Positions 8,412 to 57,437 are shown, counted from the stretch's first letter. The stretch: DNA of 64,000 nt from an uncultured Candidatus Saccharibacteria bacterium (GCA_964631145.1 CAZVXT010000001.1:52969-116968); one strand, 5' to 3'. Notes: generated by a model not told the origin, from the letters alone. Made by a program: numbers and translations.

Positions 8412-8412
8412 A

Positions 8413-8440: not shown

Positions 8441-8450
8441 TAATTTAAAT

Positions 8451-8855: not shown

Positions 8856-8904
8856 CTACTTTAATTAAATAGCTCCTATATGGGAGCTATTTAATTAAAT
8901 GAAA

Positions 8905-9165: not shown

Positions 9166-9225
9166 TTTGTTTTCCTATTAATTATATGTATCATACATTT
9201 ATAAATTAATTTATTCAACAATTCC

Positions 9226-9597: not shown

Positions 9598-9912
9598 TAA
9601 GTCAATTTAACTTAAAGATAAGAGCAAAAACATATAATTTGGCTTAAATAAAGTATAAAATGCCAATTTAGCCTTGAAAATAACCTTCGAAACTGGTATA
9701 CTTATCTAGTAAATTACTGCTTTAGGCAGTCTTTTTTAATCAAAGCAAGTCCTGTAAAGGGATAGAAAAACTATTAAAAAAGCCAATAAAACAGTAAATT
9801 TACAGGTCATTTTATCGAGAAATTCATTAAGTCTTTAGCGCAATAGAAAGAATAGTGCTTACGATTGAACCTTTCGGCTTGCGAATCAAGATTAAGGAGT
9901 TGCCTTGAAATA

Positions 9913-13724: not shown

Positions 13725-13726
13725 TA

Positions 13727-13760
13727 AAAACCTCGAGAAATTTCTCGAGGTTATTTTTTT
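13727..13760. terminator. Bidirectional rho-independent terminator between convergent genes
   Basis: AAAAACCTCGAGAAATTTCTCGAGGTTATTTTTTT palindrome. Confidence 0.7.
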
Positions 13761-20364: not shown

Positions 20365-21084
20365 ATGAGCGGTCATAGCAAATGGTCAACAATCAAAAGA
20401 GCAAAAGGAGCTGCAGATGCTAAACGCAGCAGTCTTTTTGGCAAGCTAGCAAAAAAAATTAGCATTGCTGTATGGGAAGGCAATAGTGGTGACCCTAGTC
20501 ATAATTCTAGATTACGCACAGAAATTGATCGTGCAAAAGAAGCGGGTCTACCAAACGATAATATAGATAGGGCAATTAAAAATGCGCTAGGTCAAAAGGA
20601 TTCTCAAATCAAAGAAGTTGTGTTTGAAGCTTACGGTCCATATGGTGTAGCTTTGCTCATAGAAGGAGCCACTAATAACAACAATCGCACAGTTCAAGAA
20701 ATCAAACACATACTAAACAAAGCTGGAGGAAGCTTAGGCGCGCAAGGTTCTACTGCATGGCAGTTTAAAGAGATTGGACAAATTATTATAGAAACTACTG
20801 GCGATAACAAATCAGAGATTGAATTATTAGCCATTGACTGTGGAGCAGAAGATATTATAGAAATTGATAATGGTTTAATCATAAAAATCTCCTCGCAAGA
20901 TTTAAACAAACTGAAAGATGCTTTACATAATCATGCAAATCAAATAATAGAAAGTACAATAACAAAAATCAGTGATCAAGAAATTGAACTCACTGAAGAA
21001 CAAACTAAGAAAATAGAAAACATAATTTCTTCTCTGGAAGAAAACGACGATATTGTTAACGTTTATTCAAATGCAAAAATATGA
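20365..21084 (+). CDS. yebC: YebC/PmpR-family transcriptional regulator
   Basis: MSGHSKWSTIKRAKGAADAKR N-terminus is diagnostic. Confidence 0.9.
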   Translation: MSGHSKWSTIKRAKGAADAKRSSLFGKLAKKISIAVWEGNSGDPSHNSRLRTEIDRAKEAGLPNDNIDRAIKNALGQKDSQIKEVVFEAYGPYGVALLIEGATNNNNRTVQEIKHILNKAGGSLGAQGSTAWQFKEIGQIIIETTGDNKSEIELLAIDCGAEDIIEIDNGLIIKISSQDLNKLKDALHNHANQIIESTITKISDQEIELTEEQTKKIENIISSLEENDDIVNVYSNAKI

Positions 21085-21551
21085 AAATACTAGGCATAGA
21101 CCCTGGCACAGCAACAACAGGGTTTGCAATTATTACAGAAAGTAAAAACAATTTTGTTATAGACCAGTTTGGGGTTATCTCAACACCAAAAACAGATACT
21201 GACCAACAAAGACTATTAACAGTTTTTGAAGATCTAGAAAGTTTAATCAAAAAGTACAAACCCGACAGACTTGGTGTAGAAAAATTATTTTTTACCAATA
21301 ATCAAAAAACAGCTATAACTGTAGCCCAAAGCAGAGGCGTCGTGTTATTACTTGCGGCAAAATACAAATTAGATATTTTTGAATTTACACCATTACAAGT
21401 AAAAAATATTTTATGTGGTTATGGCAAGGCAGATAAAAAACAAGTTCAACTTGCAGTAAAACAAATTTTCAAACTTAAACAAATACCAAAGCCAGATGAT
21501 GCGGCAGATAGTCTTGCTATAGCATTATGTGCTGCTTGGAAAAAGTTATAA
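21081..21551 (+). CDS. ruvC: Holliday junction resolvase RuvC
   Basis: MKILGIDPGTATTGFAI...; 156 aa; overlaps yebC by 4 nt. Confidence 0.9.
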   Translation: MKILGIDPGTATTGFAIITESKNNFVIDQFGVISTPKTDTDQQRLLTVFEDLESLIKKYKPDRLGVEKLFFTNNQKTAITVAQSRGVVLLLAAKYKLDIFEFTPLQVKNILCGYGKADKKQVQLAVKQIFKLKQIPKPDDAADSLAIALCAAWKKL

Positions 21552-33020: not shown

Positions 33021-33557
33021 TTAGTCTTTTATATTCTTAATTCTTTGTTCATATAAAGCCAAAACTATATTAGTAATTTTTTCTGGTTTAGGAACATTGT
33101 TAAATTCAAATCTTTCTGTAGCTCCAGCAGTCTGAATAAACACGTTTCCATAATCAAAAATATTACCAAAGAAACCACTTTTTTCACTAGTTACATCTTC
33201 AATGGTTTCAAGGTTAAGTTCGGAGGCTTGTCTTTTTAATAATCCATTTTGATCTATGTCTACTACGCGTTTTTCGCTTACAATATGGACATTGAGATAG
33301 TATAGCACCCATATAACGAAAATGGCAATAATTAATCCTAGGTAATAAATCTGTGCTGCAAGGCTTAATAAATCAGATACTATACCACTAAAATTAAATA
33401 AATTAGAGCCACCAACAAAATAGTTAACTATCAAGGGGATAAAGATTAAAATAAAAAGCACTCCTAATTTAATTGATAGTGGAAACCAGTGTTCTCTAAC
33501 AACTAAAATAATTTTTTCGTTTGGTTGTTGGCTAGGAAATAAAATTTCTTCAGGCAT
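33021..33557 (-). CDS. Membrane-flanked bacterial PH-domain protein (YdbS/DUF304-like)
   Basis: Two TM helices followed by a ~100-aa domain; architecture typical of bPH_2. Confidence 0.45.
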   Translation of the reverse strand: MPEEILFPSQQPNEKIILVVREHWFPLSIKLGVLFILIFIPLIVNYFVGGSNLFNFSGIVSDLLSLAAQIYYLGLIIAIFVIWVLYYLNVHIVSEKRVVDIDQNGLLKRQASELNLETIEDVTSEKSGFFGNIFDYGNVFIQTAGATERFEFNNVPKPEKITNIVLALYEQRIKNIKD

Positions 33558-33765
33558 ATTTTTGGATAATATTATGTAATGTTAAAAAAGCAGTCGCTAT
33601 TGAGGCTGTTAAAAAAACACCAAATAGCACACTGACTATAATGGTGATTTTTTTACTTCTACCGTATGAATTTAGGATGTAAATAGATAATAATGAAATA
33701 ATAACAAAACCAATAATTAGTAGCCAGAAAACAATATTTATAATATTAACTATTATATTATTCAT
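33550..33765 (-). CDS. Small 2-TM membrane protein
   Basis: 71-aa hydrophobic ORF overlapping the downstream gene. Confidence 0.35.
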   Translation of the reverse strand: MNNIIVNIINIVFWLLIIGFVIISLLSIYILNSYGRSKKITIIVSVLFGVFLTASIATAFLTLHNIIQKYA

Positions 33766-33767
33766 TT

Positions 33768-34799
33768 TTATATTAGAGTCTCTTGATCTTTTGGTTGTTT
33801 ATAACCAAGGTGATCATAAGCAAGTTTGGTGGCAACTCTTCCTTTTGGTGTGCGGATTATAAAACCGCACCTAATTAGAAATGGTTCATGGACATCAGAT
33901 ATTGTATCTAATTCTTCACCTGTGCTCGCTGCGAGTGAAGATAGCCCAACTGGACCGCCATTAAACTGCTCGATAATAATTTGTAAAATTTTACGATCAT
34001 GTTTATCTAAGCCATACTCATCTATTTCCATCATATTTAAAGCTTGTTTTGCATGATCTATATTAATTTTATCATGTCCCGAGACTTGTGCGAAGTCTCT
34101 CACTCTCTTTAAAAGTCTATTAGCGATACGTGGCGTAAACCTTCCTCTATTAGCAATTTCCAGTGCTGCCATGTTATCAATATCATTATTTAATATTTGA
34201 CTAGACCTGGAAATTATTTTTTGAAGATCCGCATTATCGTAATAATCAAGATGGTAAATTAATCCAAATCTATCTCTCAGTGGGGCAGATAACATCCCCA
34301 ATCTTGTAGTTGCTCCAATTAATGTAAACTTTGGTAACTCCATTCTGACTGATCTTGCGCCAGGTCCTTTACCGATCATAATATCCAAAACCTTATCTTC
34401 AAGGGCTGGGTAAAGAATTTCTTCTACTGATTTATTTAAGCGATGAATTTCGTCGATAAATAAAGTGTCACCTTCATTTAGATTAGTAAGTAATGATGCT
34501 AAATCCCCAGCTCTTTCAATCGCTGGTCCTGTAGTAATTTTTAAGTTAGAACCTAGTTCTTGGCTAATAATATGGGCAAGAGTTGTTTTTCCTAAACCTG
34601 GAGGACCATAAAATAAAAGATGGTCTAATGGTTCGTTTCTTATTGCCGCTGCCTTGATAACAATGTTGAGATTGTCTTTTAAGCTTTGCTGTCCTATAAA
34701 TTGATCTAATGATTGTGGGCGTAAAGAAACTTCCCAAATTTTTTCTTCAGGCTCTGGTATATTATTTAGGATTGTTTCGTTATCGCTTGTATTAATCAT
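33768..34799 (-). CDS. ruvB: Holliday junction branch-migration ATPase RuvB
   Basis: Walker [18 protein letters not shown], RuvB C-terminal domain. Confidence 0.95.
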
Positions 34800-36100
34800 A
34801 TTGATGAATTAGTATGTGTTTGATTATTGGGGGTTATAGGTGTATTTTCTGGTGTAGTCGGGGTTGTTGGGTTGGTAGTCGGTGGTGTGTTTGGTGTCTG
34901 GTTATTAGGTATAAAAGTTTCGGTTTTATGAAATAATGCAGGAGGTAAGTAGGTAGAAGAAAAATTATCTTTACGAGTTTGTCCATCTATTATAACTGTT
35001 CTGTTCCATAATGCCTTCATAGAACCATCTGATTTTCGATCAAACTGACTTGGTTTTCCTAGTGTAACTTCTCGATTATCTCTGGTTCCATAAAAATCAA
35101 AAACCAAGTAATCATTATTTTTAAAATAAGGCCAGATTAAGATACTGCCAGGAGTGTCATTTTTAAACTTTAAATCTATAACACCAGGATAAATAGTTGC
35201 ATCAGTACCTTGGGGTGCATAATAATTTACGGCATATGAATGATTTCTTCGTTGGGTAATTGGTAGTCCCGCGTGCATTGCTGCGCGGAAAGTGGTTGAC
35301 GAAACTTGACACAAACCTCCACCTAATTCTGGGATAGTGCCTTTATCAGCTTTAATGACTAATTCTGGAAGAAATCCATATTCTGCTTCAACTGGCCCTA
35401 GATATTTATTAAAACTAAATTCTTCTCCTGGCTTGATAATTACACCCTTCATTTTAGAAACCCCAACTTTTATATTTACTCTTCTGTTAGCAGGGCTACC
35501 ATTAAACTTTGATTCTCCTCTTCCTATTAATTCTTTGATTCCTAAATCATTTAAATCTTTTAGCGAATTTTTAGGTGCAGTTTCTATTACAGGTAGCTTT
35601 ATATTTAAAGTATTATCTTTATTTAAGTTATCTAAAATTGCTAAGGTTGCGTTGTATCTATCAAGTATTCGTCCCACTGTTGGAGGGGTAAATTCTACAG
35701 CCTTATCATTTTTGATTACTAGTTTTGGTTCTTCCGTTTGACTATCTATATTAGTAGATAGTGTTTTTGTCCACAAATATATTTCCTTTGGGTTGTAATT
35801 GTATTTGGTGGTAAGAAATAATTGCCCTGTTGTAAAGTTAGAATATTGTTTTATATATTGATTAATGGGAAAAACAACATCTTTGATAAATACTTGTTCT
35901 TTAATATAATAATTTCCTTCCCATAGCTTTTTTTGACTATCAGGTATGGTTGCTGTAACTTCAGGATTAACTGTATTTACATCTTCAAAACTAGGAACTG
36001 GTTTTGGCAGATCGCTGGCATGACTAATTTTGCTGGGGATTAAGATAATACCTAAAACAAAAAAAGAATATATAATTAATTGTTTACTTGATGATGTCAT
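34796..36100 (-). CDS. VanW-family protein with a signal anchor and a Pro/Thr-rich C-terminal tail
   Basis: [29 protein letters not shown] matches the VanW core; C-terminal [18 protein letters not shown] tail. Confidence 0.7.
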
Positions 36101-36500
36101 TTTGAAGATATATTTTTATTGTATTTTTTGGCAGATTATTAAAAATTTTATCCGCCCACTCTATTATTGTTATGGTTTCTTGCCTTCCCCATATTTCTGT
36201 TAATTCTAAGCTTTTTAAATCTGAAAAGTTTTTTAAACGGTAAATATCAAGGTGGTAAAACCATTTTGCATTAATCTTATCTTGCTTTGGGATTTTATAC
36301 CTCTGCATGATTACAAAAGTGGGGCTACTAATATTATTTTTGATTTTTAGGTTTTTGCCTAAATGTTTGGTAAAGGTCGTTTTGCCACTGCCTAAATTTC
36401 CAATCAAAGCTATAATTTCTCCACCCCGTAAATCTTTTGCAAAACTTTGGCAAAAAGATTCGATTTCTGAGAGTTTTATTCGGTAGGTTTTTTTCATCAT
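36084..36500 (-). CDS. tsaE: tRNA threonylcarbamoyladenosine biosynthesis ATPase TsaE
   Basis: ALIGNLGSGKTTFTK P-loop; 138 aa. Confidence 0.85.
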   Translation of the reverse strand: MMKKTYRIKLSEIESFCQSFAKDLRGGEIIALIGNLGSGKTTFTKHLGKNLKIKNNISSPTFVIMQRYKIPKQDKINAKWFYHLDIYRLKNFSDLKSLELTEIWGRQETITIIEWADKIFNNLPKNTIKIYLQNDIIK

Positions 36501-36586
36501 AAACTTAAAAGTGATTATATTGTACCGATATTGACCCTATTAGTAAAATTGGCTATATTAAAAGACTGGACTTTGGTCCTAAAATT

Positions 36587-37726
36587 ATGAATCAAGACAT
36601 ATTATTACAAATCAATAAAAGCATTGAACAGTCTTCTTCCATTGGAATAGTATTACCTAGCTATGTAACAGTAGATATTTACGCTAGTAGTTTGGCTTTG
36701 CAAAACTGGTTAATTGGTATGGGAAAAACTGTTTTTTTGTATGGAGTGGGTAAGATTCCGCAGTATGAATTTTTTGATAACCCAGAAATACCTTTAGTAA
36801 ACTTTTCTGACAATAACCAACTCCAAATCAGTATTAGTAGTTTAAATGCTACTCCTAGCTCCTTGCGATATGAAAAAACAGAAAATGGCTTAACTGTTTA
36901 TATTAATATTAAAGACGGGCAGATTAAATCTGATGATGTAGTTGTAACTCCTCCAGCTCTAAACCCTGATTTATTATTTTTATTAGACGGAGCTGATTAT
37001 GAAGCATTTGGAGATTTTTATAAAAAAAACGTTGCTGTTATTACAACCACAAAAAAAATTAGCTTAAGCACTAATCCTTCTCATAATTATTTTGCAGCAA
37101 TAAACTTTGTTAATACAGAAGTTTCAAGTTTGAGCGAGCTGGTTTATGATTTAATTGATAGCAAAAATGTTGGTGAATTTAGCGAGCGTGTAGCGACTAA
37201 TTTATTAGCAGGGATAATTTCTCAGACACAAAGTTATAGAAGTAGTAAAACTAATCCTCAAACTTTAAATAAATCTGCAAAACTTATTAGAGCAGGTGCG
37301 CGTCAGCAAGACATTATAAAAGATTTATACAAAACTAAACCTTATAATTTTTTGCAGCTATGGGGAAGAGCTTTAGCAAGAGTTGTGTATTATACAGAAA
37401 ATAATTTTTTGCAAACCACTTTAACAAAACAAGATTTTATAAAAACTTCATTAACTACGCAGGTTATACCTCAAGTTTTGATTGATCTGATAGAAATGTC
37501 TAGTGGTTTTAATATCTTTGCTCTTGTTGTTGAACAGGATTCTGGTGTTAATTTGTATTTAGCAAGTTTGCCTCATGTAAACTTACAAAAATATTTTAAA
37601 GCTTTTGATATAGATTCTGATACAGAACTTTTGCCATTATTTGGTAATTATATTTATACTAGCTTTTTGATTCCCGATTTAGAACTCGCTACTGTAGAGC
37701 AAACTTTAGCAAAAATTAGCTTTTAA
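36587..37726 (+). CDS. Catalytically degenerate DHH/NrnA paralog (pseudo-enzyme)
   Basis: Collinear similarity to the nrnA-like gene at 6865 (SLSELVYDLI vs SVAELVYDFF; ATNLLAGIISQTQ vs AQSLLTGIVTDTG), but the DxD, DHH and GGGH motifs are all absent. Confidence 0.55.
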   Translation: MNQDILLQINKSIEQSSSIGIVLPSYVTVDIYASSLALQNWLIGMGKTVFLYGVGKIPQYEFFDNPEIPLVNFSDNNQLQISISSLNATPSSLRYEKTENGLTVYINIKDGQIKSDDVVVTPPALNPDLLFLLDGADYEAFGDFYKKNVAVITTTKKISLSTNPSHNYFAAINFVNTEVSSLSELVYDLIDSKNVGEFSERVATNLLAGIISQTQSYRSSKTNPQTLNKSAKLIRAGARQQDIIKDLYKTKPYNFLQLWGRALARVVYYTENNFLQTTLTKQDFIKTSLTTQVIPQVLIDLIEMSSGFNIFALVVEQDSGVNLYLASLPHVNLQKYFKAFDIDSDTELLPLFGNYIYTSFLIPDLELATVEQTLAKISF

Positions 37727-37782
37727 ATGATATAATCAAGACAAGATATATTGTAAACTTGAAACAAATACCAAAGTAAAAT

Positions 37783-39405
37783 ATGACAAACTTTTTATCT
37801 AACAATCAAAAAGATTTAGAAAAAAGTCTTAATGACCAAAAACAAAAAATAGAAGAAGCTCAGGCGCAGCAGTTGGCGGTAACTATGCAAATGCCTTATA
37901 TAAATTTAAGGACTTTTCCTGTTGATTTGCAGTCGCTTTCTTTGATGAGTAGAGAAGAGTCTTTGCAGTCAGAATCAGCGCCAATATATAAGGATCATAA
38001 AGATTTGAAGATTGCGACAGTAAACCCATCCAACCCTTTTTTGCATGTTTTAAAAGAAAAGCTTTCTAAAGAATACAAGATTAATATTTATTTTTGTTCT
38101 CGCGGCGGTTTGATGTCTTTGCAAAAATTTTATGACAAGGTATTAAGACCATCTAGTCCTACTAACGAGCAAATCGTTTTAGATCAGACATCACAAAAAA
38201 AGATTGCTGATGTTTTGCCTTCTACTCCAGTCACTGAAGTTTTGCAAATTTTGTTTTCCGGTGCTGTAAGTCTAGGAGCTTCTGATATTCATCTTGAACC
38301 GGAAGAGAAATCTCTCAAAATTCGTTATCGTATTGATGGGGTTTTGCAGGATGCTGCAAGTATGGATGCTGGGATGCATAAACAGTTAATTTCCCGCATT
38401 AAGTTATTAGCAAAACTAAAACTTAATATATCTAACGAAGCTCAAGATGGTAGATTTACAGTTATGAATAATGAAAAAGAGTTAGATGTACGTGTTTCTG
38501 TTTTACCATCTAGTTTTGGAGAAGCAGTTGTTTTAAGGCTTCTTGGTGTAGGTGTTTTGTCTCCTGATATTGATAATTTAGGGTTGTCTGGTAAAGCTTA
38601 TAAACAAGTTATGGAAGCTTTACAAAAAACAACTGGCATGATTATCGCAACTGGTCCCACAGGTAGTGGTAAAACTACTACTTTATACTCTTGTCTAAAA
38701 TTTTTAAATAAACCAGGTATAAAAATTATTACTTTAGAAGATCCGGTAGAATATAAGCTGTCTGGTATTCAGCAAACCCCAATTGATCATCGAGTTGATT
38801 TTAGTTTTGATAAAGCGCTCAGATCTGTCTTGAGACAAGATCCTGATGTTGTTATGGTTGGTGAAATCCGTGATCCAGAAACAGGCGACACCGCGTTGCA
38901 AGCCGCTTTGACTGGTCATGTTGTGCTAACTACTTTGCACACAAATGATGCTGCAGGCGCTATTCCAAGATTGTTAACCATGGGAATAAAACCATTTGTA
39001 ATTTCTCCAGCTGTTAATGTGATTATTGCCCAGCGCTTGGTCAGAAGGTTATGTGAGTTTTGTATGGTTCAAGCTACCCTGGATCAAGTATTGTTAGAAA
39101 AAGTAAAACATGAATTATATAATATCCATGCTTCTGCAGAAGTAGTTGTCCCTAAAGAATTTATCTTTTATAGTTCTCCTGGATGTGATAAATGTGATGG
39201 GCTGGGTTATAAAGGACGAATCGGAATATATGAAGTAGTGACAATTACTGATGAAATGCGGGAGTTAATTCTTACAGAGCCCTCTGGATTATCTATAAAA
39301 AAGATAGCTTTAGAAAACGGAAGTTTAACGATGCTTCAAGATGGTTTGCTTAAAGCCCTAAATAAATTAACTGATGTTACAGAAGTTATAAGAGTTGTAG
39401 GATAA
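37783..39405 (+). CDS. pilB: GspE/PilB-family type II/IV secretion ATPase (PilB-like)
   Basis: T2SSE N-terminal domain; Walker A GPTGSGKTTT; Asp box; His box; tetracysteine (CEFC...CDKCDGLG). Confidence 0.85.
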   Translation: MTNFLSNNQKDLEKSLNDQKQKIEEAQAQQLAVTMQMPYINLRTFPVDLQSLSLMSREESLQSESAPIYKDHKDLKIATVNPSNPFLHVLKEKLSKEYKINIYFCSRGGLMSLQKFYDKVLRPSSPTNEQIVLDQTSQKKIADVLPSTPVTEVLQILFSGAVSLGASDIHLEPEEKSLKIRYRIDGVLQDAASMDAGMHKQLISRIKLLAKLKLNISNEAQDGRFTVMNNEKELDVRVSVLPSSFGEAVVLRLLGVGVLSPDIDNLGLSGKAYKQVMEALQKTTGMIIATGPTGSGKTTTLYSCLKFLNKPGIKIITLEDPVEYKLSGIQQTPIDHRVDFSFDKALRSVLRQDPDVVMVGEIRDPETGDTALQAALTGHVVLTTLHTNDAAGAIPRLLTMGIKPFVISPAVNVIIAQRLVRRLCEFCMVQATLDQVLLEKVKHELYNIHASAEVVVPKEFIFYSSPGCDKCDGLGYKGRIGIYEVVTITDEMRELILTEPSGLSIKKIALENGSLTMLQDGLLKALNKLTDVTEVIRVVG

Positions 39406-39415
39406 CAGTATATTT

Positions 39416-39450
39416 AAAAAAGCCAGGGAGTCCTGGCTTTTTAATTTTTG
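39416..39450 (+). terminator. Rho-independent terminator after the pilB-like gene
   Basis: AAAAAGCCAGGGAGTCCTGGCTTTTTAATTTTT. Confidence 0.7.
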
Positions 39451-39501
39451 ACCTGCAAATTAATTTCATATACAATAGTTTATTAAAGGAGGAATAAGAA
39501 A

Positions 39502-39930
39502 ATGTTTTATCAATATAATTTATTTGGTTGGTTTATTATTTTTTGTATAGTCGCATTTTTTATTGCATTTGCATTGGCTGTGTATATAAAAATGACTAAA
39601 AAATATACATTTGATTTTGAATTTCCAAAAAATCAGCATGATCTTAATGAGATGGTAGATTATTTGGCAAGTATGCCTGAGTGGTGTGTTTATAATTACT
39701 TTTTAAGTAAAAGTAATAAGCAAAGTGGTTTAGTAATACAAATTTCTCATATTGCTAAACTCTGGGAAAAAGAAAATATTTTTATTATTAACACACACCC
39801 AAATTATGAAGAAGTTTATAAGTATTTAGAAAACTCAAATTATCAAGTAGAGTTAACGTTTTTAAAAAATAACCTTACTATAAGTAGTAATAATCCTCTA
39901 GATTATTTGCAAGTTAAAATTTCAGATTAA
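39502..39930 (+). CDS. Hypothetical N-terminally anchored membrane protein (standalone unit: promoter, SD, terminator)
   Basis: 142 aa; TTGACC...TATACAAT promoter; AAAGGAGGAATAAGAAAATG; hairpin with T-run at 39931-39953. Confidence 0.5.
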   Translation: MFYQYNLFGWFIIFCIVAFFIAFALAVYIKMTKKYTFDFEFPKNQHDLNEMVDYLASMPEWCVYNYFLSKSNKQSGLVIQISHIAKLWEKENIFIINTHPNYEEVYKYLENSNYQVELTFLKNNLTISSNNPLDYLQVKISD

Positions 39931-39983
39931 AGTCGGAAACCCCGGCTTTTTTTATTATTCTAAAATCGGTACAATGCCTATAT

Positions 39984-42746
39984 ATGGCTACAAAAAATGA
40001 TAAAAAACGATATTTATTAATAGATGGAAACGCTCTCGTCCATAGGGGCTTTCATGCAGTTCCTTTACTCTCCACTAAAGATGGTTTGTATACTAATGCT
40101 GTTTATGGATTTACTACAATACTTCTTAAGGCAATTAAGGATTTAAAGCCAACACATATTGCTTGTTGTTTTGATTTGGCTGGTCCAACCTTTCGCCATG
40201 AAGAATATGAAGACTATAAAGGTACTAGAACAAAAGCTGCTGACGAATTATATCAACAGTTCCCTTTGGTTAAGGAAGTGGTGTCAGCTTTAAATATTCC
40301 AATTTTTGAATTATCTGGTTTTGAAGCAGACGATTTGCTTGGCACTTTATCTGTAAAAATTTGTGAAGCCAATGATCATAATTGCGATGTTATGATTGCA
40401 ACAGGAGATCTAGATAGCTTGCAGTTGGTTAATAAATGCGTAAAGATTTATACTTTACGAAAAAGTATTGCAGATACAACTATTTATGACGAAAAAGCCA
40501 TCAAAGAAAGATATGGATTATTGCCAAAGCAAATGATAGATTATAAAGCGCTTCGAGGTGATCCCTCTGATAATATTAAAGGCGTTAAAGGAATAGGAGA
40601 AAAAACTGCAGGAGAATTGATTCAAGAATTTGGTAGTATCGAAGCTTTATACAATGCAATAAAATCCCAGTCAAAAAAAGTTGAAGAAAAAATTAAGCCA
40701 CGCGTAGTAAAATTGTTAACTGATGGCGAAGATGACGCGCGACTAAGTTATCGATTATCAAAAATAGTTTTAGATGTGCCAATCGAAATAGATATCAAGT
40801 CTTATAAATTTGTAACTACAAATTTTGATAAAACTGTTGATCTTTTTAAAAAGCTGGAGTTCAAATCTCTTTTAGATAAATTGCCAAAAAACTATGTAGA
40901 CTCTGAAGATTCTAAAAACGATATAACTAAATCAGAAGATCAGATTATGAGTCAAAATATCGGGGAGCAAAATTATCAACTTATCGATACCTCAGAAAAA
41001 TTAAATAAAATTTTACCGAACTTAAAAAAGCAAAAATACTTAGTAGTAGACACAGAAACTGATCAGTTAAATCCGATGGTTGCTAATGTTATTGGAATTT
41101 CTATTTCATATCAAAAAGGATTGGCTTATTATATTATCCAAGAACTGTTAAGTAATAAAGATTTACAAAATATATTATCTGATAGCCAAATCAAAAAAAT
41201 CGGACAAAATATTAAGTATGATTATTTAACATTGGAAAATAGAGAAATTAAATTATCTCCAGTGTGGTTTGATACCATGCTTGCTTCCTATTTGCTTAAC
41301 GCTGGGACCAGGCAACATGGTTTAGATACAATGGCTTTTAATATACTGGGGTATCAAATGCAGTCTATCGAAGAATTGATAGGAAAAGGAAGAAATCAAA
41401 TTTCTATGTCAGAAGTTCCGGTAGAAAAAGTGTCATGGTACGCAAGTGAAGACGCAGATATTACTTTCCGCTTGTATGAGATTTTATCAGATCAGTTACA
41501 ATCAGAAAAATTAGATAAAGTTTTTTTTGATATAGAAATGCCTTTAATTTTGGTTCTTGCAAAAATGGAACGTGCTGGTATTGGCGTTGATGTTAAATTA
41601 TTAAACGATTTATCTGTAAAAGCTGAAAAACAAATTGCAAAATTAGAAAGCAGTATTTATAAGCATGCAGGGCAAGAGTTTAACATTTCTTCTCCAAAAC
41701 AATTGCAGGTTATTTTGTATGAAAATTTAAATTTAACTTCTGGTAAAAAGAATAAAACTGGATTATCAACTGCAGCAGGAGAATTAGAAAGATTGCGTGA
41801 CGAGCACCCTATTGTTTCTGATATTTTGGAATATCGTGAATTAACTAAATTAAAATCTACTTATTTAGATGCGCTTCCTTCTATGGTTAATAGTTCGACT
41901 GGAAGAATTCATACAAACTATAATCAGACAATTGCTGCTACAGGAAGATTGTCTAGTACGGATCCAAATTTGCAAAATATTCCAATTCGTGGACAAGGTT
42001 TGGGCAGTGAGGTAAGAAAAGCTTTTGTTGCTAAGTCAGGGTATAAATTAGTATCTTTGGATTATTCTCAAATAGAACTTCGTATCGCTGCTCATTTGTC
42101 TGGTGATAAGACTATGGCAGAAACTTTTAAAAAGAATGAAGATATTCATACCGCTACCGCATCTATGGTATTTGGAGTAAAGCCAGAACTGGTAACTGCT
42201 GATATGCGTCGCGATGCAAAGATGGTTAACTTTGGAGTATTATATGGGTTGTCTAGTTTTGGTTTGTCTGATCGGTTAGTAAGCATGTCGCAAGGATCAG
42301 CACAAGACTTTATCAATAAATATTTTGGTGCGTTTCCTGATGTGCAAACTTATTTAGAAAAAGTAAAATTAGAGGTTAGAGAAAATGCTGCAGTTACAAA
42401 TATGTTAGGAAGAATTAGAAAGTTTCCAGAAATAAAATCCAGTCAATATTTTATTCTTCAGGCAGCAGAGCGTGCAGCAATTAATTTTCCAATCCAAAGT
42501 TTAAGTGCTGATATTATAAAACTAGCAATGCTAGAAATCTATAAAGAATTAGATGGACAAGAAGAAATTCAGATGTTGTTGCAAGTGCACGACGAACTAG
42601 TTTTTGAAATTAAATCCGATAAGGTTGATAAATGGATAAAAAAAATAAAGCCTATTATGGAAAACTCCCTAAAGCTTTCTGTTCCAATAGTTGTAGAGGC
42701 AAAGGTTGGCGATAATTGGGGCGATATGGAAAAGGTTAGTTTTTAA
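39984..42746 (+). CDS. polA: DNA polymerase I (5'-3' exonuclease + 3'-5' exonuclease-like + polymerase domains)
   Basis: 920 aa; 5' nuclease N-terminus; motif A DYSQIELR; motif C QVHDELVFE. Confidence 0.95.
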   Translation: MATKNDKKRYLLIDGNALVHRGFHAVPLLSTKDGLYTNAVYGFTTILLKAIKDLKPTHIACCFDLAGPTFRHEEYEDYKGTRTKAADELYQQFPLVKEVVSALNIPIFELSGFEADDLLGTLSVKICEANDHNCDVMIATGDLDSLQLVNKCVKIYTLRKSIADTTIYDEKAIKERYGLLPKQMIDYKALRGDPSDNIKGVKGIGEKTAGELIQEFGSIEALYNAIKSQSKKVEEKIKPRVVKLLTDGEDDARLSYRLSKIVLDVPIEIDIKSYKFVTTNFDKTVDLFKKLEFKSLLDKLPKNYVDSEDSKNDITKSEDQIMSQNIGEQNYQLIDTSEKLNKILPNLKKQKYLVVDTETDQLNPMVANVIGISISYQKGLAYYIIQELLSNKDLQNILSDSQIKKIGQNIKYDYLTLENREIKLSPVWFDTMLASYLLNAGTRQHGLDTMAFNILGYQMQSIEELIGKGRNQISMSEVPVEKVSWYASEDADITFRLYEILSDQLQSEKLDKVFFDIEMPLILVLAKMERAGIGVDVKLLNDLSVKAEKQIAKLESSIYKHAGQEFNISSPKQLQVILYENLNLTSGKKNKTGLSTAAGELERLRDEHPIVSDILEYRELTKLKSTYLDALPSMVNSSTGRIHTNYNQTIAATGRLSSTDPNLQNIPIRGQGLGSEVRKAFVAKSGYKLVSLDYSQIELRIAAHLSGDKTMAETFKKNEDIHTATASMVFGVKPELVTADMRRDAKMVNFGVLYGLSSFGLSDRLVSMSQGSAQDFINKYFGAFPDVQTYLEKVKLEVRENAAVTNMLGRIRKFPEIKSSQYFILQAAERAAINFPIQSLSADIIKLAMLEIYKELDGQEEIQMLLQVHDELVFEIKSDKVDKWIKKIKPIMENSLKLSVPIVVEAKVGDNWGDMEKVSF

Positions 42747-42904: not shown

Positions 42905-43894
42905 ATGGATACAGGAGAAATAATAATTTATAAAGATAATAGTGGTCCTCAAATTGAGGTAAATTTTGTTGATGATACTATATGGCTCACCCAGTCGCAG
43001 ATGGCTGATCTGTTTGGTAAAGACATTAGAACTATCTCTGAACATATCAAAAATATCTTTAAAACCGGGGAATTAGCAAAAGATTCAGTTATCCGGAATT
43101 TCCGGATAACTGCAAAAGATGGTAAAAACTATAATACGGCACATTACAATTTAGATATGATAATTTCTGTAGGATATAGAGTTAATTCTAAGCGCGGTAC
43201 TCAGTTTCGTATTTGGGCTACTTCAAAAATTCGAGATTTTTTACTAAAAGGTTATGTAGTAAATAAAAACGTTTTGCAATCTGGTGCTCTTGCAAAAGTT
43301 AAAGAGTTAGAGGGGGCGGTTAGGTTGATTCAATTAGCAATACAAAATAAAAAATTAGAAGGATATGAAAAGGAGGTTTTAGATATTATTACAGATTATG
43401 CTGCAACTTGGACTTTACTATATCAGTACGATGAACAAAAGCTACAACCAGAGCATGTGGTAAAGAAGGTAACTAGAAAATTAGATTATGAACAAGTTAC
43501 AAAATCTATTGATAAATTTCGAGACCGATTACTAAAAGATAAACAGGCTAGCAAGTTATTTGGAAAAGAACAAGATGGTAAGCTCCAGGCATTGTTAGGA
43601 AATATAGAGCAAACTTATGACGGCAAGTCTGTGTATGAAGGTTTTGAACAAAAGGCTGCTCATTTATTATACTTTGCAATTAAGGATCATCCTTTTGCAG
43701 ACGGTAATAAACGAATTGGTTCTTTATTATTTATTTTATACTTAGTAGAAAATGATCGCATTTATAACAAGCGAGGCGATAGAATAATTAATGACAATGC
43801 ATTAACAGCAATTGCATTATTAATTGCAGAAAGTAGTCCCAGTGAAAAAAGCACAATGGTTAATTTAGTGGCAAGTTTGATTGCAAAAAAATAA
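42905..43894 (+). CDS. RhuM-family N-terminal domain fused to a Doc/Fic (death-on-curing type) C-terminal domain
   Basis: C-terminal HPFADGNKRIGS matches the Doc variant of the Fic motif HxFx(D)GNKR; the N-terminal ~200 aa resemble virulence-protein RhuM-family proteins. Confidence 0.7.
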   Translation: MDTGEIIIYKDNSGPQIEVNFVDDTIWLTQSQMADLFGKDIRTISEHIKNIFKTGELAKDSVIRNFRITAKDGKNYNTAHYNLDMIISVGYRVNSKRGTQFRIWATSKIRDFLLKGYVVNKNVLQSGALAKVKELEGAVRLIQLAIQNKKLEGYEKEVLDIITDYAATWTLLYQYDEQKLQPEHVVKKVTRKLDYEQVTKSIDKFRDRLLKDKQASKLFGKEQDGKLQALLGNIEQTYDGKSVYEGFEQKAAHLLYFAIKDHPFADGNKRIGSLLFILYLVENDRIYNKRGDRIINDNALTAIALLIAESSPSEKSTMVNLVASLIAKK

Positions 43895-43990: not shown

Positions 43991-44527
43991 ATGCTAGAGC
44001 AAATTCAAGACAATAAAGATCTGCTTTTGGTTGATTACAACATCAAGCCATTTGTCCCAGAAGGATGGTATTTTTATAAACCTGTCACCAAACTCGGTGT
44101 TTATGTTTATAGAATGCAAGATTTTATCATTATTCCGGCAATGAATTTTAAAATCAATAATGAAGATAAAATTAATTACCGGAAATTTCGTGAACGGTTT
44201 GAAGAGTCGCAATTAATATCGCCTGATGTGAGAGTTATGGAAGAAATGATTAAGCAAAAATCTAATTTATTGCCTCTGTCTTGGTTTAAATTAGATATGC
44301 ACTATCATTTTTTAGAAACTTTATATGGCGTTCCTCATGGTGAAAGAATGCGAAGGTATATGTGTTGGGGGTATGCTAGGTGGGCTGTAGAATATCGTTA
44401 TCATCCAAGACAAATTCTAAAATGGCGTTCCGATTATTCGTTTGGCGAAAGCCCCTTCGGTGAAAATGACTTTATTGTAATTTTAAAACAAGATGCTGTT
44501 ATTGAATATATAGATAAGTTAGATTAA
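43991..44527 (+). CDS. Hypothetical protein downstream of the RhuM–Doc gene (own promoter, perfect SD)
   Basis: 178 aa; TTAGGAGGAAATATG; Trp/Tyr/Arg-rich C-terminal half; no recognisable domain. Confidence 0.5.
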   Translation: MLEQIQDNKDLLLVDYNIKPFVPEGWYFYKPVTKLGVYVYRMQDFIIIPAMNFKINNEDKINYRKFRERFEESQLISPDVRVMEEMIKQKSNLLPLSWFKLDMHYHFLETLYGVPHGERMRRYMCWGYARWAVEYRYHPRQILKWRSDYSFGESPFGENDFIVILKQDAVIEYIDKLD

Positions 44528-44564
44528 ACTAAATATCATAGATATTTTAAATTAAATATTTTTA

Positions 44565-44592
44565 ACAAAAACACCCAATTAAGGGTGTTTAA
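44565..44592. terminator. Bidirectional terminator shared with rpsT
   Basis: AAAAACACCCAATTAAGGGTGTTTAATTTTG. Confidence 0.65.
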
Positions 44593-44599
44593 TTTTGTT

Positions 44600-44869
44600 C
44601 TATTTAGCAGAAAGTTTGTTTAAAGCTTTTGCAAGTCTAGATTTTTTGCGAGAAGCAGTATTTTTGTGAATTACATTCTTCTTTGCAGCTTTATCTAAAG
44701 CAGACATTGCTTTCTTTAAATCTTCCGCAGCAGTTTTGCTGTCTCCAGTTGTTATGCTTTTGCGTGCTACTTTTACCGCATCTTTAGTTTTGAACTTGGT
44801 GCGAGTATTAATAGTGTTGCGGCGTCTAGATTGACGCATTGCCTTTTGGGCAGACTTGGTATTTGGCAT
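44600..44869 (-). CDS. rpsT: 30S ribosomal protein S20
   Basis: MPNTKSAQKAMRQSRRRNTINTRTKF... is the canonical S20 N-terminus. Confidence 0.9.
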   Translation of the reverse strand: MPNTKSAQKAMRQSRRRNTINTRTKFKTKDAVKVARKSITTGDSKTAAEDLKKAMSALDKAAKKNVIHKNTASRKKSRLAKALNKLSAK

Positions 44870-45071
44870 TGAAGGTTATTATTTGATTTAAGTTTGTAAT
44901 TAAGCAATTGATTCCTTATCTGTTTTTAGACACGGCAGAAAGGAAAAATCTTTAGTTATTATACCGACAAACAATAGAAAAATCAAGTCACTGTCTTTTT
45001 AATATATAGTTGACTCAAGAGCATTTTTTAGTTAAAATGATTAGAAAATTTAAATAGGAGGAAATTTTATA

Positions 45072-45827
45072 ATGAATAGTAATAAAAGCGAAGCTTTGCA
45101 AGTTGATAATGTTCAGAATAACCTAAAAGCAAAAATTGCAATTCAGGCGTGCGAACAATTGGGTTTTACTGGGTATCTTAGGTATTTTCAAGAAAATAAA
45201 CAAGCTTTGACAAAAGATTTAAACGAAGTAAGTTTAAGTTCGGTTTTAGGTAACGTAGGAATAAATTTTTATCCTGAACAAGCCTTTAATAGAATTATTG
45301 ATGAATATTTTTGGGCTAATTTTAGTAAAGGTAAATTTAATTTATGGTTGCATAACTTAGAAATTAATCACTGGGTAAAATTGTATTTTTCTATATTTTT
45401 ATTATTTTACTCTATATCGTATTATACTCTTCATTCTTATGTATGGGGTAATAATACACCCGCTTGTATTTTGATGTCGTTAATTATTTCATTTTTTGCT
45501 TTTGCCGCAATTAAGGATTTGGTTTTAAATCCAAGAGAAGAAAAAGTAGAAAAGCTAAAAATTAAAAAATCAGATTTAAGTAAAACTAGCCTAGATGTAA
45601 ACCCAGAATTTATTACCATGGCGTTGCAAATTAAATCGTTTGACTCAACTGCGAAATTTAATATTTGCTATTATTATAAAGATTGGGGTATTGATTCAAA
45701 TAAACCTCAATGGCTAGAAGTAACTAATGCTTCTGGAGAAAAGTGTTATATTCCTGAACACGAAGGTGATTGGCAAAATTATTGTGACCTACCTTCATCT
45801 AGTGAACAAGTATTAAATTATTTATAG
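45072..45827 (+). CDS. Novel membrane protein, paralog A of a tandem pair
   Basis: 251 aa; N-terminal soluble domain with ACEQLGFTGYLRYFQENKQ; central TM helices; C-terminal domain MALQIKSFDSTAKFNICYYY; own promoter TTGACT-17-TAAAAT, AGGAGGAA SD and terminator. Confidence 0.55.
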   Translation: MNSNKSEALQVDNVQNNLKAKIAIQACEQLGFTGYLRYFQENKQALTKDLNEVSLSSVLGNVGINFYPEQAFNRIIDEYFWANFSKGKFNLWLHNLEINHWVKLYFSIFLLFYSISYYTLHSYVWGNNTPACILMSLIISFFAFAAIKDLVLNPREEKVEKLKIKKSDLSKTSLDVNPEFITMALQIKSFDSTAKFNICYYYKDWGIDSNKPQWLEVTNASGEKCYIPEHEGDWQNYCDLPSSSEQVLNYL

Positions 45828-45917
45828 TCGACAAGTTCGACTATTTTTTTATTTTCATAGTCTTTACATGACTATTTATAAATGTTAATATTTATAGAAT
45901 TTAAAAAGGAGGAATAT

Positions 45918-46607
45918 ATGAAAACAGATTTAGATTTATTAGATTATAAAAAAACTTTAGCAAAAGAAGCTGCTAATAAGCTTGGATTTAGAGGGTATTT
46001 GCCTCAAGGTAACCAACAAGTTGTTAAGCAAAATTACCCTGAAATTCCATTAATGCCATTACTAACTCAATATGGATTTCCGGTTTATGACCAATGTTTT
46101 TTTAATAATAGAGCCAACCAAATTTTTGAAGAAAATTTAGAACAGGCGGGGTTATTAAAAAAGTATAATTTTAGAAATAAGGTCCAAATAACTTTTAACA
46201 AATGGTTTGTCTTATATCCTTTTTTAATAATAGTTTGTGGACTAGAGTTGTTTTTTGCTTATTTAGTTATAACAACTAACTACGAATCATTGGGAGCGGT
46301 ATGTATGTTATCAGGTATAGTGTTTTTGTTTGTATTGATGATAGTGTTAATGAGATTTGCATTGTTTTTATCCGGAAAAAACTTTCAACACCGTTTTCAT
46401 TCGATGGATCTTAAAAGTTTGAAAAACGACTGGGTTCATCCTATTGTGATTGAAATGGCATTGAAGATTTTTGACCAAGACAATTCTGCTAAATTTGAAG
46501 TTGGATATTTTCTTGACGAAGCACAAAAGCCTGCGAGTCAAAATCAATTTTTGGTAGTTCAGAATTATTATTCCGGTGATCAGAAATATTATATGAAGAT
46601 CACTTAA
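45918..46607 (+). CDS. Novel membrane protein, paralog B of the tandem pair
   Basis: Homologous motifs AANKLGFRGYLPQGNQQ and MALKIFDQDNSAKFEVGYFL; start set at the ATG at 45918 after AAGGAGGAATAT; own terminator at 46609-46641. Confidence 0.55.
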   Translation: MKTDLDLLDYKKTLAKEAANKLGFRGYLPQGNQQVVKQNYPEIPLMPLLTQYGFPVYDQCFFNNRANQIFEENLEQAGLLKKYNFRNKVQITFNKWFVLYPFLIIVCGLELFFAYLVITTNYESLGAVCMLSGIVFLFVLMIVLMRFALFLSGKNFQHRFHSMDLKSLKNDWVHPIVIEMALKIFDQDNSAKFEVGYFLDEAQKPASQNQFLVVQNYYSGDQKYYMKIT

Positions 46608-52677: not shown

Positions 52678-53975
52678 GATTCTAAAATTTGCTTAATAAT
52701 CTCTCTATCGTCCCACAAAATTCTTTTGTTGCCAGGTAGAACTAGAAACTGTTCACTGCCTTTTCCTGTGACAAGAAGAATATCTTTAGGCTGTAAAATT
52801 TTGATAGCAAATTGTAATGCTTCTAATCTGCTCAGTATTACTTCGTGTTGGATTTTAGGATTTTCAGATCTTATTCCTTTTACTATTTCTGCTGCGATTT
52901 CTTGGGGATTGCTTTCGTATACATCATCGTTGGTCACGATTATATAGTCAGCAAATTGTGCAGAGATTTGTCCAAACTCAAATCTTTTGCTTTTATCACG
53001 ATGTCCGCCAGTCGCACCAAAAACATGAATCAATCTGTTATGTGGCAATTTATGAACTGTTTGAATACTGTTATAAAGCGGCTTGGGCTCTGGTGCGTAA
53101 TCAACAATAATATTTGCGTCTAAATTATTTTTTATAAATTCCATTCTTCCGGCAGCTCCATTATAAGATGCAAGTGCTGTTGCGGATTGTTGTAATGTGA
53201 TGCCATAAAATTTTGCGGCCGTGGTTGCTAATAAAGCATTATAGATATTGAACCTGCCGATGATATTTAAGTTAAACTTAACATCATTAACCATGTAAGA
53301 AGCTGCCCCTTTATCGTTAATCTCAGCGGCTGTAATTAAGTTTGTAATATGTGTCTCTATTTTTTGTTTTAAAGTGACTCCAAACAAATTACTTACTGGT
53401 TGGTTGGCAAAAACTTCATAATGTTTGTCATCAACATTAACTACAATAAATCCATCTTCTGGAATCAATTTAAATAATTTTAATTTAGCATTTCTATAAT
53501 TATCAAAATTACCATGGCTATCCAAATGAGCAGGTGATAGGTTGGTAAAAATTGCCCCAGAAAAATTAATTTTTAAGTGACGATTTTGAGCCATGCCTTC
53601 GGAGGTGCATTCGATAATTGCAAACTGGCAACCATTGCTAACAAGTTGTGCTAAATTTTTTTGAAGTAGCCAACCGCCTGGCATAGATAATCCATGTTTG
53701 TTTAAAATGCTTGTATCTCCATCGCTAAAACCAACTGTTGTAATGTAACCAGTTTTTTTATTATTTTGATTTAAGATATGAGCCAGCATCATGACAGTAG
53801 AAGATTTTCCTGCTGTGCCAGTAACACCAATACAGATTAGCTTTTGACTAGGGTGATCGAAATATAAATCTGCTAAAGTTGCGATCATTCCATGCCAATA
53901 AGGTTGAGCAAGTTTAAAGATGCTTCTGGGAATAAAAATTTTTATAACTTTTTTTATTTGGCTTAACATAAACAA
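52674..53975 (-). CDS. MurE-like Mur ligase lacking the N-terminal UDP-binding domain
   Basis: [30 protein letters not shown] parallels E. coli MurE [42 protein letters not shown] and [16 protein letters not shown] are Mur-ligase motifs; C-terminal [10 protein letters not shown]...WDDRE; overlaps tsaB by 4 nt. Confidence 0.7.
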   Translation of the reverse strand: [433 protein letters not shown]

Positions 53976-54055
53976 ATTATACCTGATATTAATATATTTG
54001 ACAAAAATTGATTTTTATGATAAAATAACAAAAAAAATATGGAGGAATTTTGATA

Positions 54056-54912
54056 TGAATCAAATTCAAAAAATGCAGCAAATTTCCAGTGAAATTCGAC
54101 TTTGGTTAATCAGTTTCGCGATCAGTGTTGTGTTATTGATTTGTGGTGGCGCGCATATTACTTATTTGTCATTTTATAGGGTAGATTGGGGGTTCTGGGG
54201 TAGTCTTTTATTATATTTTTCTATAATAATAGTGCAAGTGGCTGGGGTTGTCTCAATTGCGACTTGTCGCAAGGTTCCTGTATTACATCAGACCTTTAAT
54301 ATTGAGGCAACAAAATATTTTCGGCAAAACCCAAAATTCGTTACTCTTAGAAAAAGTAAAACTGCCCCCGTTTACTTTACGGTTAGAAATATATTTTTCA
54401 TGATTTTTATGGATGACTTTATTCAAAAAGTTGATGAAAATATTAATGAGCAGTATATAGAAATGTTAAATAATATTTCTATAAGTAAAATTGATGAACG
54501 TCATTATGAAAAAGATGAGATCCTACAAAACTTTTTAGAGTCAAACGAAGTTGCCATTGATTATAAAATTTCTAAAAGAATTTTAAAAGCCATTGGAAAT
54601 TACGCAATGGCGATAAATCAAAAGCAGTTGTTGATTGATGAAGTAGAAGCCAGATTTTTTGCCAAGGATCAATCCAAGGTAGTTGAGCAAAAAGTAGAAC
54701 CTCCAAAAGTTCTATCTAAGTTTGAAAGACGGCTACAAGAATTTGAAAAAGAAGTTGGAAGTAATAAACTTTCTACTATGGCTCAAGACCTAATTAACCA
54801 GGCTATTCTTAAAGAAGATCCAAACCTCGTTAGTGGTGCTTTGACAATTTACCGCCAAGACTTAAAAAAGAAAAAAGACTTGGAACAAAAAGCCAAAAAG
54901 GTGAAGGTGTAA
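54056..54912 (+). CDS. Hypothetical membrane-anchored coiled-coil protein
   Basis: Start set at MNQIQKMQQ (ATGGAGGAATTTTGATATG) because the longer ORF overlaps the murE-like start; 2 TM helices plus a charged C-terminal half. Confidence 0.45.
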
Positions 54913-55946: not shown

Positions 55947-56507
55947 TTATATTTTCCCAATTAGTTTTAACGCTTCTTTAATTTGCTCTCCGGTATCAAC
56001 AGTTGTATCGATTTTACCAATAACTTCTCGTACTTCTCGAGGATTGTAGCCAAGAGAAATTAATGCATCAAATAAGTCACTGCTTGGTCCAGAAGTAGAT
56101 TGAAGAATATTGCCAGACATTTTATTTTTAAGTTCTAAAATAATTCTTTCGGCAGTTTTTTTACCTACCCCGGACATGCGAGTAAATATATCGCTATCGC
56201 CAGAAAGAATAGCTTGTTCTAACATATCTAATTTACCAGCAGAGATAATGGTAAGAGCCATCTTTGGTCCAACCCCTGTGACAGTTAGGAGCAATTCAAA
56301 AAATTGTAAGCTAGTAAAATCGCTCATACCAAATAAAGTTTGACCGTCATCGCTGGATTTATGGTAAATATATAAAGAAATATTTGAACCAGCTGTTTGA
56401 TCTAAAATCTCTGGAGTTGTAAAAATTTTATAACCAACTCCGTTATTTACCAATATGATAAATTGAGCAGTTTTTTGTAAGATTTTTCCTTCAAGATAAC
56501 TAATCAT
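55947..56507 (-). CDS. ruvA: Holliday junction DNA helicase subunit RuvA
   Basis: MISYLEGKI...; HhH motifs (GVGPKMALTIIS, GVGKKTAERIILEL); 186 aa. Confidence 0.9.
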   Translation of the reverse strand: MISYLEGKILQKTAQFIILVNNGVGYKIFTTPEILDQTAGSNISLYIYHKSSDDGQTLFGMSDFTSLQFFELLLTVTGVGPKMALTIISAGKLDMLEQAILSGDSDIFTRMSGVGKKTAERIILELKNKMSGNILQSTSGPSSDLFDALISLGYNPREVREVIGKIDTTVDTGEQIKEALKLIGKI

Positions 56508-57376: not shown

Positions 57377-57437
57377 TATTAGACCTTTTTTATTTTCTTA
57401 TACTTTGCTATGTTAAAGAAAAATTAGGAGGATAATT

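Follow-up and report, generated by a model that had tools for sequence, protein, structure and literature searches.

A 64,000-nucleotide stretch of the genome of an uncultured Candidatus Saccharibacteria bacterium (GCA_964631145.1, CAZVXT010000001.1:52969-116968), referred to as the window in the following, carries on its plus strand a gene for a protein of the DHH/DHHA1 type, here named pDHH, which is directly followed by the gene for a PilB-like ATPase (PilB3). The two open reading frames (ORFs) occupy positions 36587-37726 (379 amino acids) and 37783-39405 (540 amino acids) and are separated by a spacer of 56 nt (37727-37782). These coordinates, the distance between the two genes and a further ORF at 39502-39930 had been given in a preliminary description of the locus, and all of them proved to be exact. 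The spacer contains no terminator and harbours an extended -10-like element (TGaTATAAT, 37728-37736). A promoter-like site lies 5' of pDHH, and 12 nt past the stop codon of the ATPase gene a strong intrinsic-terminator-like hairpin with an 11 bp stem and a T-run (39417-39442, plus strand) ends the unit, while no obvious Shine-Dalgarno sequence precedes either gene. With this operon-like layout the region 36587-39405 is predicted to be a two-gene transcription unit. The promoter-like sites named here and below are consensus matches only, and their total count in the window is not above that in shuffled sequences.

Fold and active site of pDHH

In the preliminary description pDHH had been regarded as a homologue of the NrnA-like protein encoded at 6865-7830 on the same strand (321 amino acids, DHH/DHHA1). 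This homology was confirmed by a BLASTP alignment with an E value of 1e-15 and 25% identity over 174 amino acids, which contains both sequence blocks that had been quoted as shared. The Pfam DHH profile assigns 15 bits to pDHH at a cut-off of 28.1, DHHA1 is undetected, and the NCBIfam NrnA profile yields 17 bits at a cut-off of 350. An AlphaFold2 model calculated with 30 homologues as input has a mean predicted local distance difference test value (pLDDT) of 88.7, and a Foldseek search with this model gave full-length matches to TM1595, to the NrnA proteins of S. aureus and B. subtilis, to Pde2, to Rv2837c and to the catalytic domain of GdpP, with E values from 1e-14 to 6e-22 and of about 1e-21 for TM1595, NrnA and Pde2. 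A pDHH profile matched DHH/DHHA1 structures in the PDB with E values from 1e-21 to 1e-27. The predicted structure has both domains of the DHH plus DHHA1 fold. In the DHH domain a four-stranded beta insertion of about 50 amino acids (about residues 75-125) is located between motifs I and II, and this insertion is common to a subfamily of intact DHH enzymes of the candidate phyla radiation (CPR).

The active site of B. subtilis NrnA consists of H20, D24, D26, D80, H103, H104, and D156, and its substrates are recognised in the DHHA1 domain by a GGGH and an RxRxR motif (PMC9757072). Two of these seven active site residues, the equivalents of D26 and D80, are kept in pDHH and five are lost. Motif I (HxxxDxD) reads PSYVTVD, in which the histidine and the first aspartate are gone and the second aspartate (D30) is retained; D30 is invariant across the pDHH family. 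Motif II (LLFLLDGA) has kept its aspartate, at the position of which a glycine is found in most close relatives. In motif III STN replaces DHH, and in motif IV (GIISQTQSY) the aspartate is changed to glutamine, the motif IV aspartate being absent from 80 of 80 genome loci of the family. In the DHHA1 domain LFGN is found instead of GGGH, and LYLAS instead of GSLRS, with an alanine in place of the arginine. The alignment with NrnA-type structures which the preliminary description had proposed as a check indicates loss of most metal ligands and catalytic residues. Its statement that DxD, DHH, and GGGH have disappeared is correct for the latter two motifs and has to be amended for the first one, since the second aspartate of DxD is still present, as is the aspartate of motif II. 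Because most of the metal-binding and catalytic residues as well as the recognition motifs of DHHA1 are lost, pDHH should have no canonical nanoRNase, pAp phosphatase, or phosphodiesterase activity, and it is predicted to be a catalytically degenerate, non-catalytic DHH/DHHA1 homologue.

The NrnA-like protein of the window reaches 40.8 bits with the Pfam DHH profile, 34.7 bits with DHHA1, and 120 bits with the NCBIfam NrnA profile, which is below the cut-off of 350. In accordance with its earlier designation as a genuine NrnA it keeps DxD, DHH, the motif IV aspartate, and GGGH, but in an alignment with TM1595 and SH1221 a glycine is found at the position of the motif II aspartate, so that this designation holds in part. 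The aspartate in question (D80 in both TM1595 and B. subtilis NrnA) is one of two residues which were mutated to obtain an inactive NrnA (PMC9757072). A recent duplication of this gene as the origin of pDHH could be ruled out by the identity of 25% over only part of the length and by the insertion shared with the other, intact subfamily; by its sequence, pDHH goes back to an ancient DHH subfamily of the CPR which is distinct from this gene and carries the insertion.

Relatives of pDHH are numerous. A word-indexed search found 131, mostly of about 380 amino acids and largely unnamed, and a hidden Markov model search of 1.84 billion cluster representatives yielded 3,591 proteins at E≤1e-30. When 252 family sequences were compared at eight key residues, ten were fully intact and 242 had lost two to eight of the eight, most commonly six, so the family grades from intact enzymes into fully degenerate members. 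The intact members carry the same insertion of about 50 amino acids and are in many cases longer, with disordered tails; the long DHH matches (470-662 amino acids) turned out to be intact enzymes with disordered tails rich in proline, glutamate, and glutamine and not fusions to PilB. The ratio of nonsynonymous to synonymous substitutions (dN/dS) of pDHH between related genomes is 0.04-0.11 (L020 versus L031, for instance, gave a dN of 0.032 and a dS of 0.49), and full-length orthologues occur in more than 170 species-level genomes. The family is under strong purifying selection, and a decaying pseudogene is ruled out by these ratios. Together these proteins define a large, as yet unannotated family of predicted pseudoenzymes in Patescibacteria.

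Conservation of the gene pair and the orphan ATPase

Conservation of the pDHH-PilB adjacency was examined by searching GTDB genomes, one for each species, with the family profile; this gave 173 loci, of which 80 underlie the counts. In loci with at least 1.8 kb of downstream sequence (n=69), a PilB homologue encoded in the same direction not more than 1.6 kb away was scored as a neighbour. By this measure 64 of 69 loci have a same-strand PilB homologue after pDHH, and the gap between the pDHH stop and the PilB start has a median of 72 nt (65 loci) and can be as short as 4-7 nt (4 nt in L110). Besides this, a scripted count found a divergent tsaE gene upstream of pDHH, at a distance of up to 1 kb, in 69 of 76 loci, a number which rises to 71 once ORF-extension artefacts in L034 and L040 are corrected. 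The pair was also found in Sungbacteria, Doudnabacteria, Kerfeldbacteria, and others, where its flanks are unrelated, and it extends over several class-level groups and a large part of the Patescibacteria; in Moranbacteria the pair is split by three unrelated genes. None of three catalytically intact relatives has a PilB neighbour. These adjoin rpsO-pnp-RNase J, recJ, or unrelated genes. In a neighbour-joining tree of the family the intact proteins branch first and the PilB-linked members form one group. Apart from one clade which is considered below, the sole degenerate member without linkage is L045, in which a methyltransferase and a transposase gene follow pDHH. Retention of the catalytic residues or a lack of conservation in relatives had been named in the preliminary description as results that would refute its proposal; what was found is that most of the catalytic residues are lost and the adjacency is conserved. 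Contigs with the order tsaE-pDHH-PilB were also encountered in seven metagenome-assembled genomes labelled as Acidobacteriaceae, Vicinamibacterales, Pirellulales, and Gammaproteobacteria, which are probably mis-binned.

The ATPase contains a T2SSE domain (Pfam, 392.9 bits, 1.4e-117), including the Asp box region, and, at residues 36-108, an N-terminal domain of the N1E/GSPII type (PF05157, 24.8 bits versus 23.1). Its closest structure in the PDB is PilB 5zfr (4e-103), with GspE at about 1e-92, and its relatives include PilB of Geobacter, Myxococcus, and Thermus. Walker A (residue 291), Walker B (356), and the His box (377) are invariant across orthologues, as are the cysteines of the tetracysteine motif (CEFC at 424, CDKC at 468) in the alignment of orthologues, which are uniform in length (540-551 amino acids) and 52-63% identical. 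The protein is predicted to be a bona fide, catalytically competent ATPase of the hexameric PilB/GspE type, although it stays below the NCBIfam equivalog cut-off (TIGR02538, 460.2 versus 675.65 bits). The 24-residue c-di-GMP motif of MshEN, RLGxx(L/V/I)(L/V/I)xxG(L/V/I/F)(L/V/I)xxxxLxxxLxxQ, has no match in the ATPase, even to a relaxed core, and a c-di-GMP-sensing N-terminus of this kind was ruled out by its absence.

The earlier statement that the ATPase has no pilC, pilM, or pilN partner genes in the window was corroborated: among the 49 larger ORFs of the window Pfam recognises no PilC/T2SSF, PilM, PilN/O, or prepilin peptidase, and no GFTLIE-type prepilin motif is found in any frame of the window. 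Likewise, the flanks of 64 related loci contain no genes for pilus platform, alignment, or pilin proteins; tsaE, ruvB, and polA are found there instead. As a contrast set, and not as a reciprocal count, a metagenome scan anchored on PilB was used. Among the matches listed it comprised 80 PilBs, mostly generic and 35-49% identical. Flanks with tsaE, ruvB, and/or polA were seen in 15 of these 80 and none of the three in the other 65; the typical order in the context loci is polA-tsaE on one side and, divergently, [pDHH] pilB followed by ruvB on the other. When a neighbour-joining tree was built from the ATPase core, the PilBs of the context loci grouped with those linked to pDHH and were separated from about 60 context-free PilBs among the matches listed. 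By sequence and surroundings, the ATPase of the window belongs to a distinct "orphan PilB" paralogue group which is not encoded with pilus platform genes.

The neighbours of this group recur. The ruvB gene follows PilB3 immediately and on the same strand in many lineages, among them Sungbacteria, Moranbacteria, and the metagenome loci L102, L105, L106, L110, L118, and L119. A polA gene lies no more than 6 kb away in 34 of the 80 loci anchored on pDHH and, among the matches listed, in 8 of the 15 context loci anchored on PilB, vanW recurs alongside ruvB and polA, and tsaE adjoins PilB3 also in lineages without pDHH. Several variants of the orphan PilB were noted. In some genomes of the Moranbacteria type it is duplicated in tandem and called as a single protein of 806-936 amino acids (five proteins, and L097 at 8001-10551). 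A sublineage (L099-L101) has an FtsH-like gene and a gene for a multi-pass membrane protein of about 330 amino acids immediately upstream, in place of tsaE and pDHH. Short forms of about 435 amino acids without the N1E domain occur in L110 (3806-6221), L112, L115, and L125, some with and some without pDHH; since PilBs lacking N1E also occur with pDHH, a contact between the two proteins, if there is one, need not involve this domain.

Candidate counterparts of the ATPase have been recorded in cultured Saccharibacteria. In S. epibionticum both type IV pilus (T4P) loci have a GspE/PilB of their own, and a third one, SEML1_0527, lies outside both (PMC10633639). It is listed with 1623 bp, 540 amino acids, an N1E and an ATPase domain, the annotation GspE/PulE, and membership in a core family enriched in Patescibacteria, and its transposon sequencing (Tn-seq) calls are GD/ES/ES (PMC10633639 Table S1); it is not discussed in the main text. 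The same organism has a 603-amino-acid hypothetical protein with a DHH fold, SEML1_0073, encoded elsewhere in the genome and with the calls NE/GD/GD (PMC10633639). TM7x also has a third gspE, TM7x_02335, and its locus tag is not within any of the four T4P loci that have been described (PMC11623550, PMC10768705).

The window, with a G+C content of 33%, is origin-proximal, as rnpA, yidC, dnaA, dnaN, and recF are located at 26.5-31.9 kb. The divergent tsaE (36084-36500, minus strand; Pfam TsaE 8e-33), which is the neighbour most regularly found beside the unit, is separated from pDHH by an intergenic region (36501-36586) with back-to-back promoter-like sites on the plus (36531-36559) and the minus strand (36547-36519). 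It opens a tightly packed string of minus-strand genes leading away from the pDHH unit, which continues with a VanW-domain gene, ruvB (33768-34799, minus strand), a gene for a transmembrane protein of 71 amino acids, a bPH_2 gene, and a nucleotidyltransferase gene. The trio of ruvB, a transmembrane protein of about 70 amino acids, and a bPH_2 protein (33021-34799, minus strand) recurs in distant Patescibacteria (L006-L008, L097, L102, L105, L110, L119). On the other side polA (39984-42746, plus strand), like ruvB, is part of the wider conserved neighbourhood. Elsewhere in the window, apart from ruvB, lie ruvA (55947-56507) and ruvC (21081-21551). Just past polA a protein of 329 amino acids with Virulence_RhuM and Fic domains is encoded (42905-43894), followed at 43991-46607 by several ORFs without Pfam matches, possibly a small variable or mobile region. 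ORFs of 173-394 amino acids without a Pfam match at E≤1e-4 were found at 17948-19132, 13044-14280, 45072-46607, 53920-54912, and 56588-58301.

Between the ATPase gene and polA a self-contained unit (39448-39949, plus strand) encodes a membrane protein of 142 amino acids with one N-terminal transmembrane helix. It consists of a promoter-like site (39448-39476), a perfect Shine-Dalgarno sequence (AAAGGAGG), the ORF at 39502-39930, and a terminator (39929-39949), just as had been outlined before. It does not belong to the pDHH-PilB module. Among 5.8 billion proteins no homologue other than itself was found, tblastn detected none in 80 pDHH loci, and its G+C content is 24% compared to 31-36% in the neighbouring genes. 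The slot after PilB varies in relatives, where it holds polA, valS, or genes for unrelated proteins that are secreted or located in the membrane. A third module component was therefore ruled out for this ORFan in its variable slot.

Possible roles of pDHH

From the gene order we infer, with a probability of about 0.5, that pDHH assists the orphan ATPase as a non-catalytic accessory factor. The dead DHH protein probably serves the adjoining motor, because the pairing has been kept across many related lineages. It might be an adaptor, regulator, or scaffold which docks on the ATPase, or it might link the ATPase to a partner or substrate, a role that would be comparable to that of other pseudoenzymes serving ring ATPases.

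A number of observations weigh against such a coupling. The -10-like element in the spacer means that the ATPase gene may also have a transcription start of its own. The neighbour-joining tree of the pDHH family contains a clade of about eight relatives of pDHH without a PilB neighbour. Conversely, among the matches listed only 4 of 15 PilB-anchored context loci contain pDHH (L102, L103, L110, L125), and L105, L106, L118, and L119 have the tsaE/ruvB/polA block together with PilB and no pDHH. SEML1_0527 and TM7x_02335 are likely counterparts of the ATPase of the window, as judged by length and domain layout only, and in S. epibionticum SEML1_0527 has no adjacent DHH gene (PMC10633639). A fusion of pDHH to PilB was not found in the searches, the long PilB matches of 806-936 amino acids being the tandem duplications described above. 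As related but more distant lineages keep the ATPase and its neighbourhood without pDHH, the latter would be a frequent accessory rather than an obligate partner or core component. Finally, tsaE is as constant a neighbour of pDHH as PilB, so the linkage could mirror a conserved housekeeping block.

This last point leads to the main rival explanation, which is possible though rather unlikely, namely that synteny has been preserved without direct coupling. pDHH would then have a non-catalytic role of its own, in RNA or DNA metabolism or together with TsaE, and would be carried along in a rarely rearranged, origin-proximal block of polA-tsaE and, divergently, pilB-ruvB. The constancy of tsaE, the recurrence of ruvB, polA, and vanW in the flanks, the existence of the same block without pDHH, and the three genes which split the pair in Moranbacteria would all fit, as would L063, a pDHH relative without PilB which still has tsaE-tsaD nearby. 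Gene order at such evolutionary depth, however, is normally kept only for co-functioning genes. In addition, the same-strand pair with a short spacer persists where the flanks differ entirely, as in Sungbacteria and at one further locus (P0104), its gaps go down to 4-7 nt, and none of the three intact relatives has this arrangement.

A second alternative takes up the idea of the preliminary description that pDHH may be a nucleotide-sensing regulator. pDHH would then bind nanoRNA, pAp, pApA, or a cyclic dinucleotide and signal to the ATPase, comparable to the control of PilB by c-di-GMP through MshEN or FimX-PilZ. DHH/DHHA1 proteins do bind such ligands, and the D80N D156N variant of NrnA still binds dinucleotides (PMC9757072). 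The lack of an MshEN motif in the ATPase itself and the invariant aspartate of motif I in the pDHH family would also be compatible with a sensor. On the other hand, GGGH, the DHHA1 arginine, and most of the metal ligands have disappeared, and the extent of this loss differs between family members; such variable loss is what would be expected from relaxed constraint on the pocket and not from a conserved ligand site. Moreover, no DisA, CdaA, or GGDEF protein, that is, no diadenylate or diguanylate cyclase, is annotated in the available portions of the sequence- and structure-annotated S. epibionticum genome. The proposal of a nucleotide-sensing regulator has been weakened by these findings and is now doubtful.

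Even less likely is a remodelled enzyme that would be active on another substrate by means of D30, D133, and other residues. Two acidic ligands do remain in pDHH, and L072, L082, and L088 keep DHH and part of DxD. The surviving residues, however, differ between members, six of eight being most commonly lost and the motif II aspartate missing in most close relatives; no alternative conserved polar cluster is apparent, and the invariant positions are mostly core residues common to the intact relatives. That pDHH is a pseudogene or annotation artefact, as its Pfam score below threshold might suggest, can practically be dismissed in view of the full-length orthologues in more than 170 species-level genomes, the low dN/dS ratios, and the confident AlphaFold2 model.

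Comparison with known systems

A large part of bacterial diversity belongs to the Patescibacteria, in which the majority of conserved genes still lack an assigned function. The present analysis delimits a large pseudoenzyme family, the partner consistently encoded next to it in an operon-like arrangement, and a separate group of orphan PilBs. In the single Saccharibacterium for which Tn-seq data exist, a likely counterpart of the ATPase is essential, yet it goes undiscussed in the literature searched. The proposed coupling is directly testable with genetically tractable Saccharibacteria and with recombinant proteins. While the components are of known kinds, the association of pDHH with PilB and the context of the orphan ATPase appear to be undescribed: searches of the literature for a connection of DHH or DHHA1 with PilB or GspE in CPR yielded no description of the pairing or of the pseudoenzyme family.

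With the stand-alone DHH/DHHA1 enzymes NrnA, Pde2, TM1595, CnpB/Rv2837c, and DhhP pDHH shares the predicted two-domain fold over its whole length. It differs from them by having only two of seven active site residues, by the absence of GGGH and the arginine, by its insertion of about 50 amino acids, and by its gene neighbour, which is an ATPase gene in place of genes for RNA decay. The ATPase in turn has the T2SSE and N1E-type domains, Walker A and B, His box, and tetracysteine motif of PilB/GspE, but scores below the equivalog cut-offs and has no pilC, pilM, pilN, pilO, pilD, or pilin gene nearby, its context being tsaE, ruvB, and polA. Cultured Saccharibacteria have a third, orphan gspE besides PilB1 and PilB2, which are encoded inside their T4P loci.

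Small cytoplasmic proteins or domains which bind and gate PilB-type motors are known from MshEN with c-di-GMP, from FimX-PilZ, and from the cyanobacterial Hfq-EbsA-PilB system, in which Hfq, a fold of RNA metabolism, has been recruited as a partner of PilB. pDHH has no relation to these in sequence or fold, and they act on the ATPases of complete pilus machines. A functional cooperation of pDHH with the orphan ATPase, if it exists, would represent a novel means of equipping or controlling an ATPase of the secretion superfamily.

A further analogy is provided by Cdc45 and the degenerate archaeal RecJ proteins (GAN/RecJdbh-type) of CMG helicases, in which a DHH-superfamily fold without nuclease residues is a non-catalytic partner of a hexameric ATPase. 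By this analogy the orphan PilB and the dead DHH protein might form a non-pilus machine for nucleic acid transactions, specific to Patescibacteria and possibly essential, with pDHH as a Cdc45-like scaffold or substrate adaptor; the tie to nucleic acid transactions is suggested by ruvB, polA, and tsaE, which constantly accompany the pair close to the origin, and this extended proposal is speculative and improbable as a whole. RecJ-Cdc45 structures are among the weaker Foldseek matches of the pDHH model (rank 48). The two cases differ in that Cdc45 is RecJ-like and pDHH NrnA-like, in that the ATPase is an MCM of the AAA+ type in one and a PilB/secretion ATPase in the other, and in that the pDHH locus has no equivalent of GINS. 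Should the accessory role of pDHH hold true, it would be a bacterial case of a DHH nuclease fold recycled as the non-catalytic partner of a ring ATPase.

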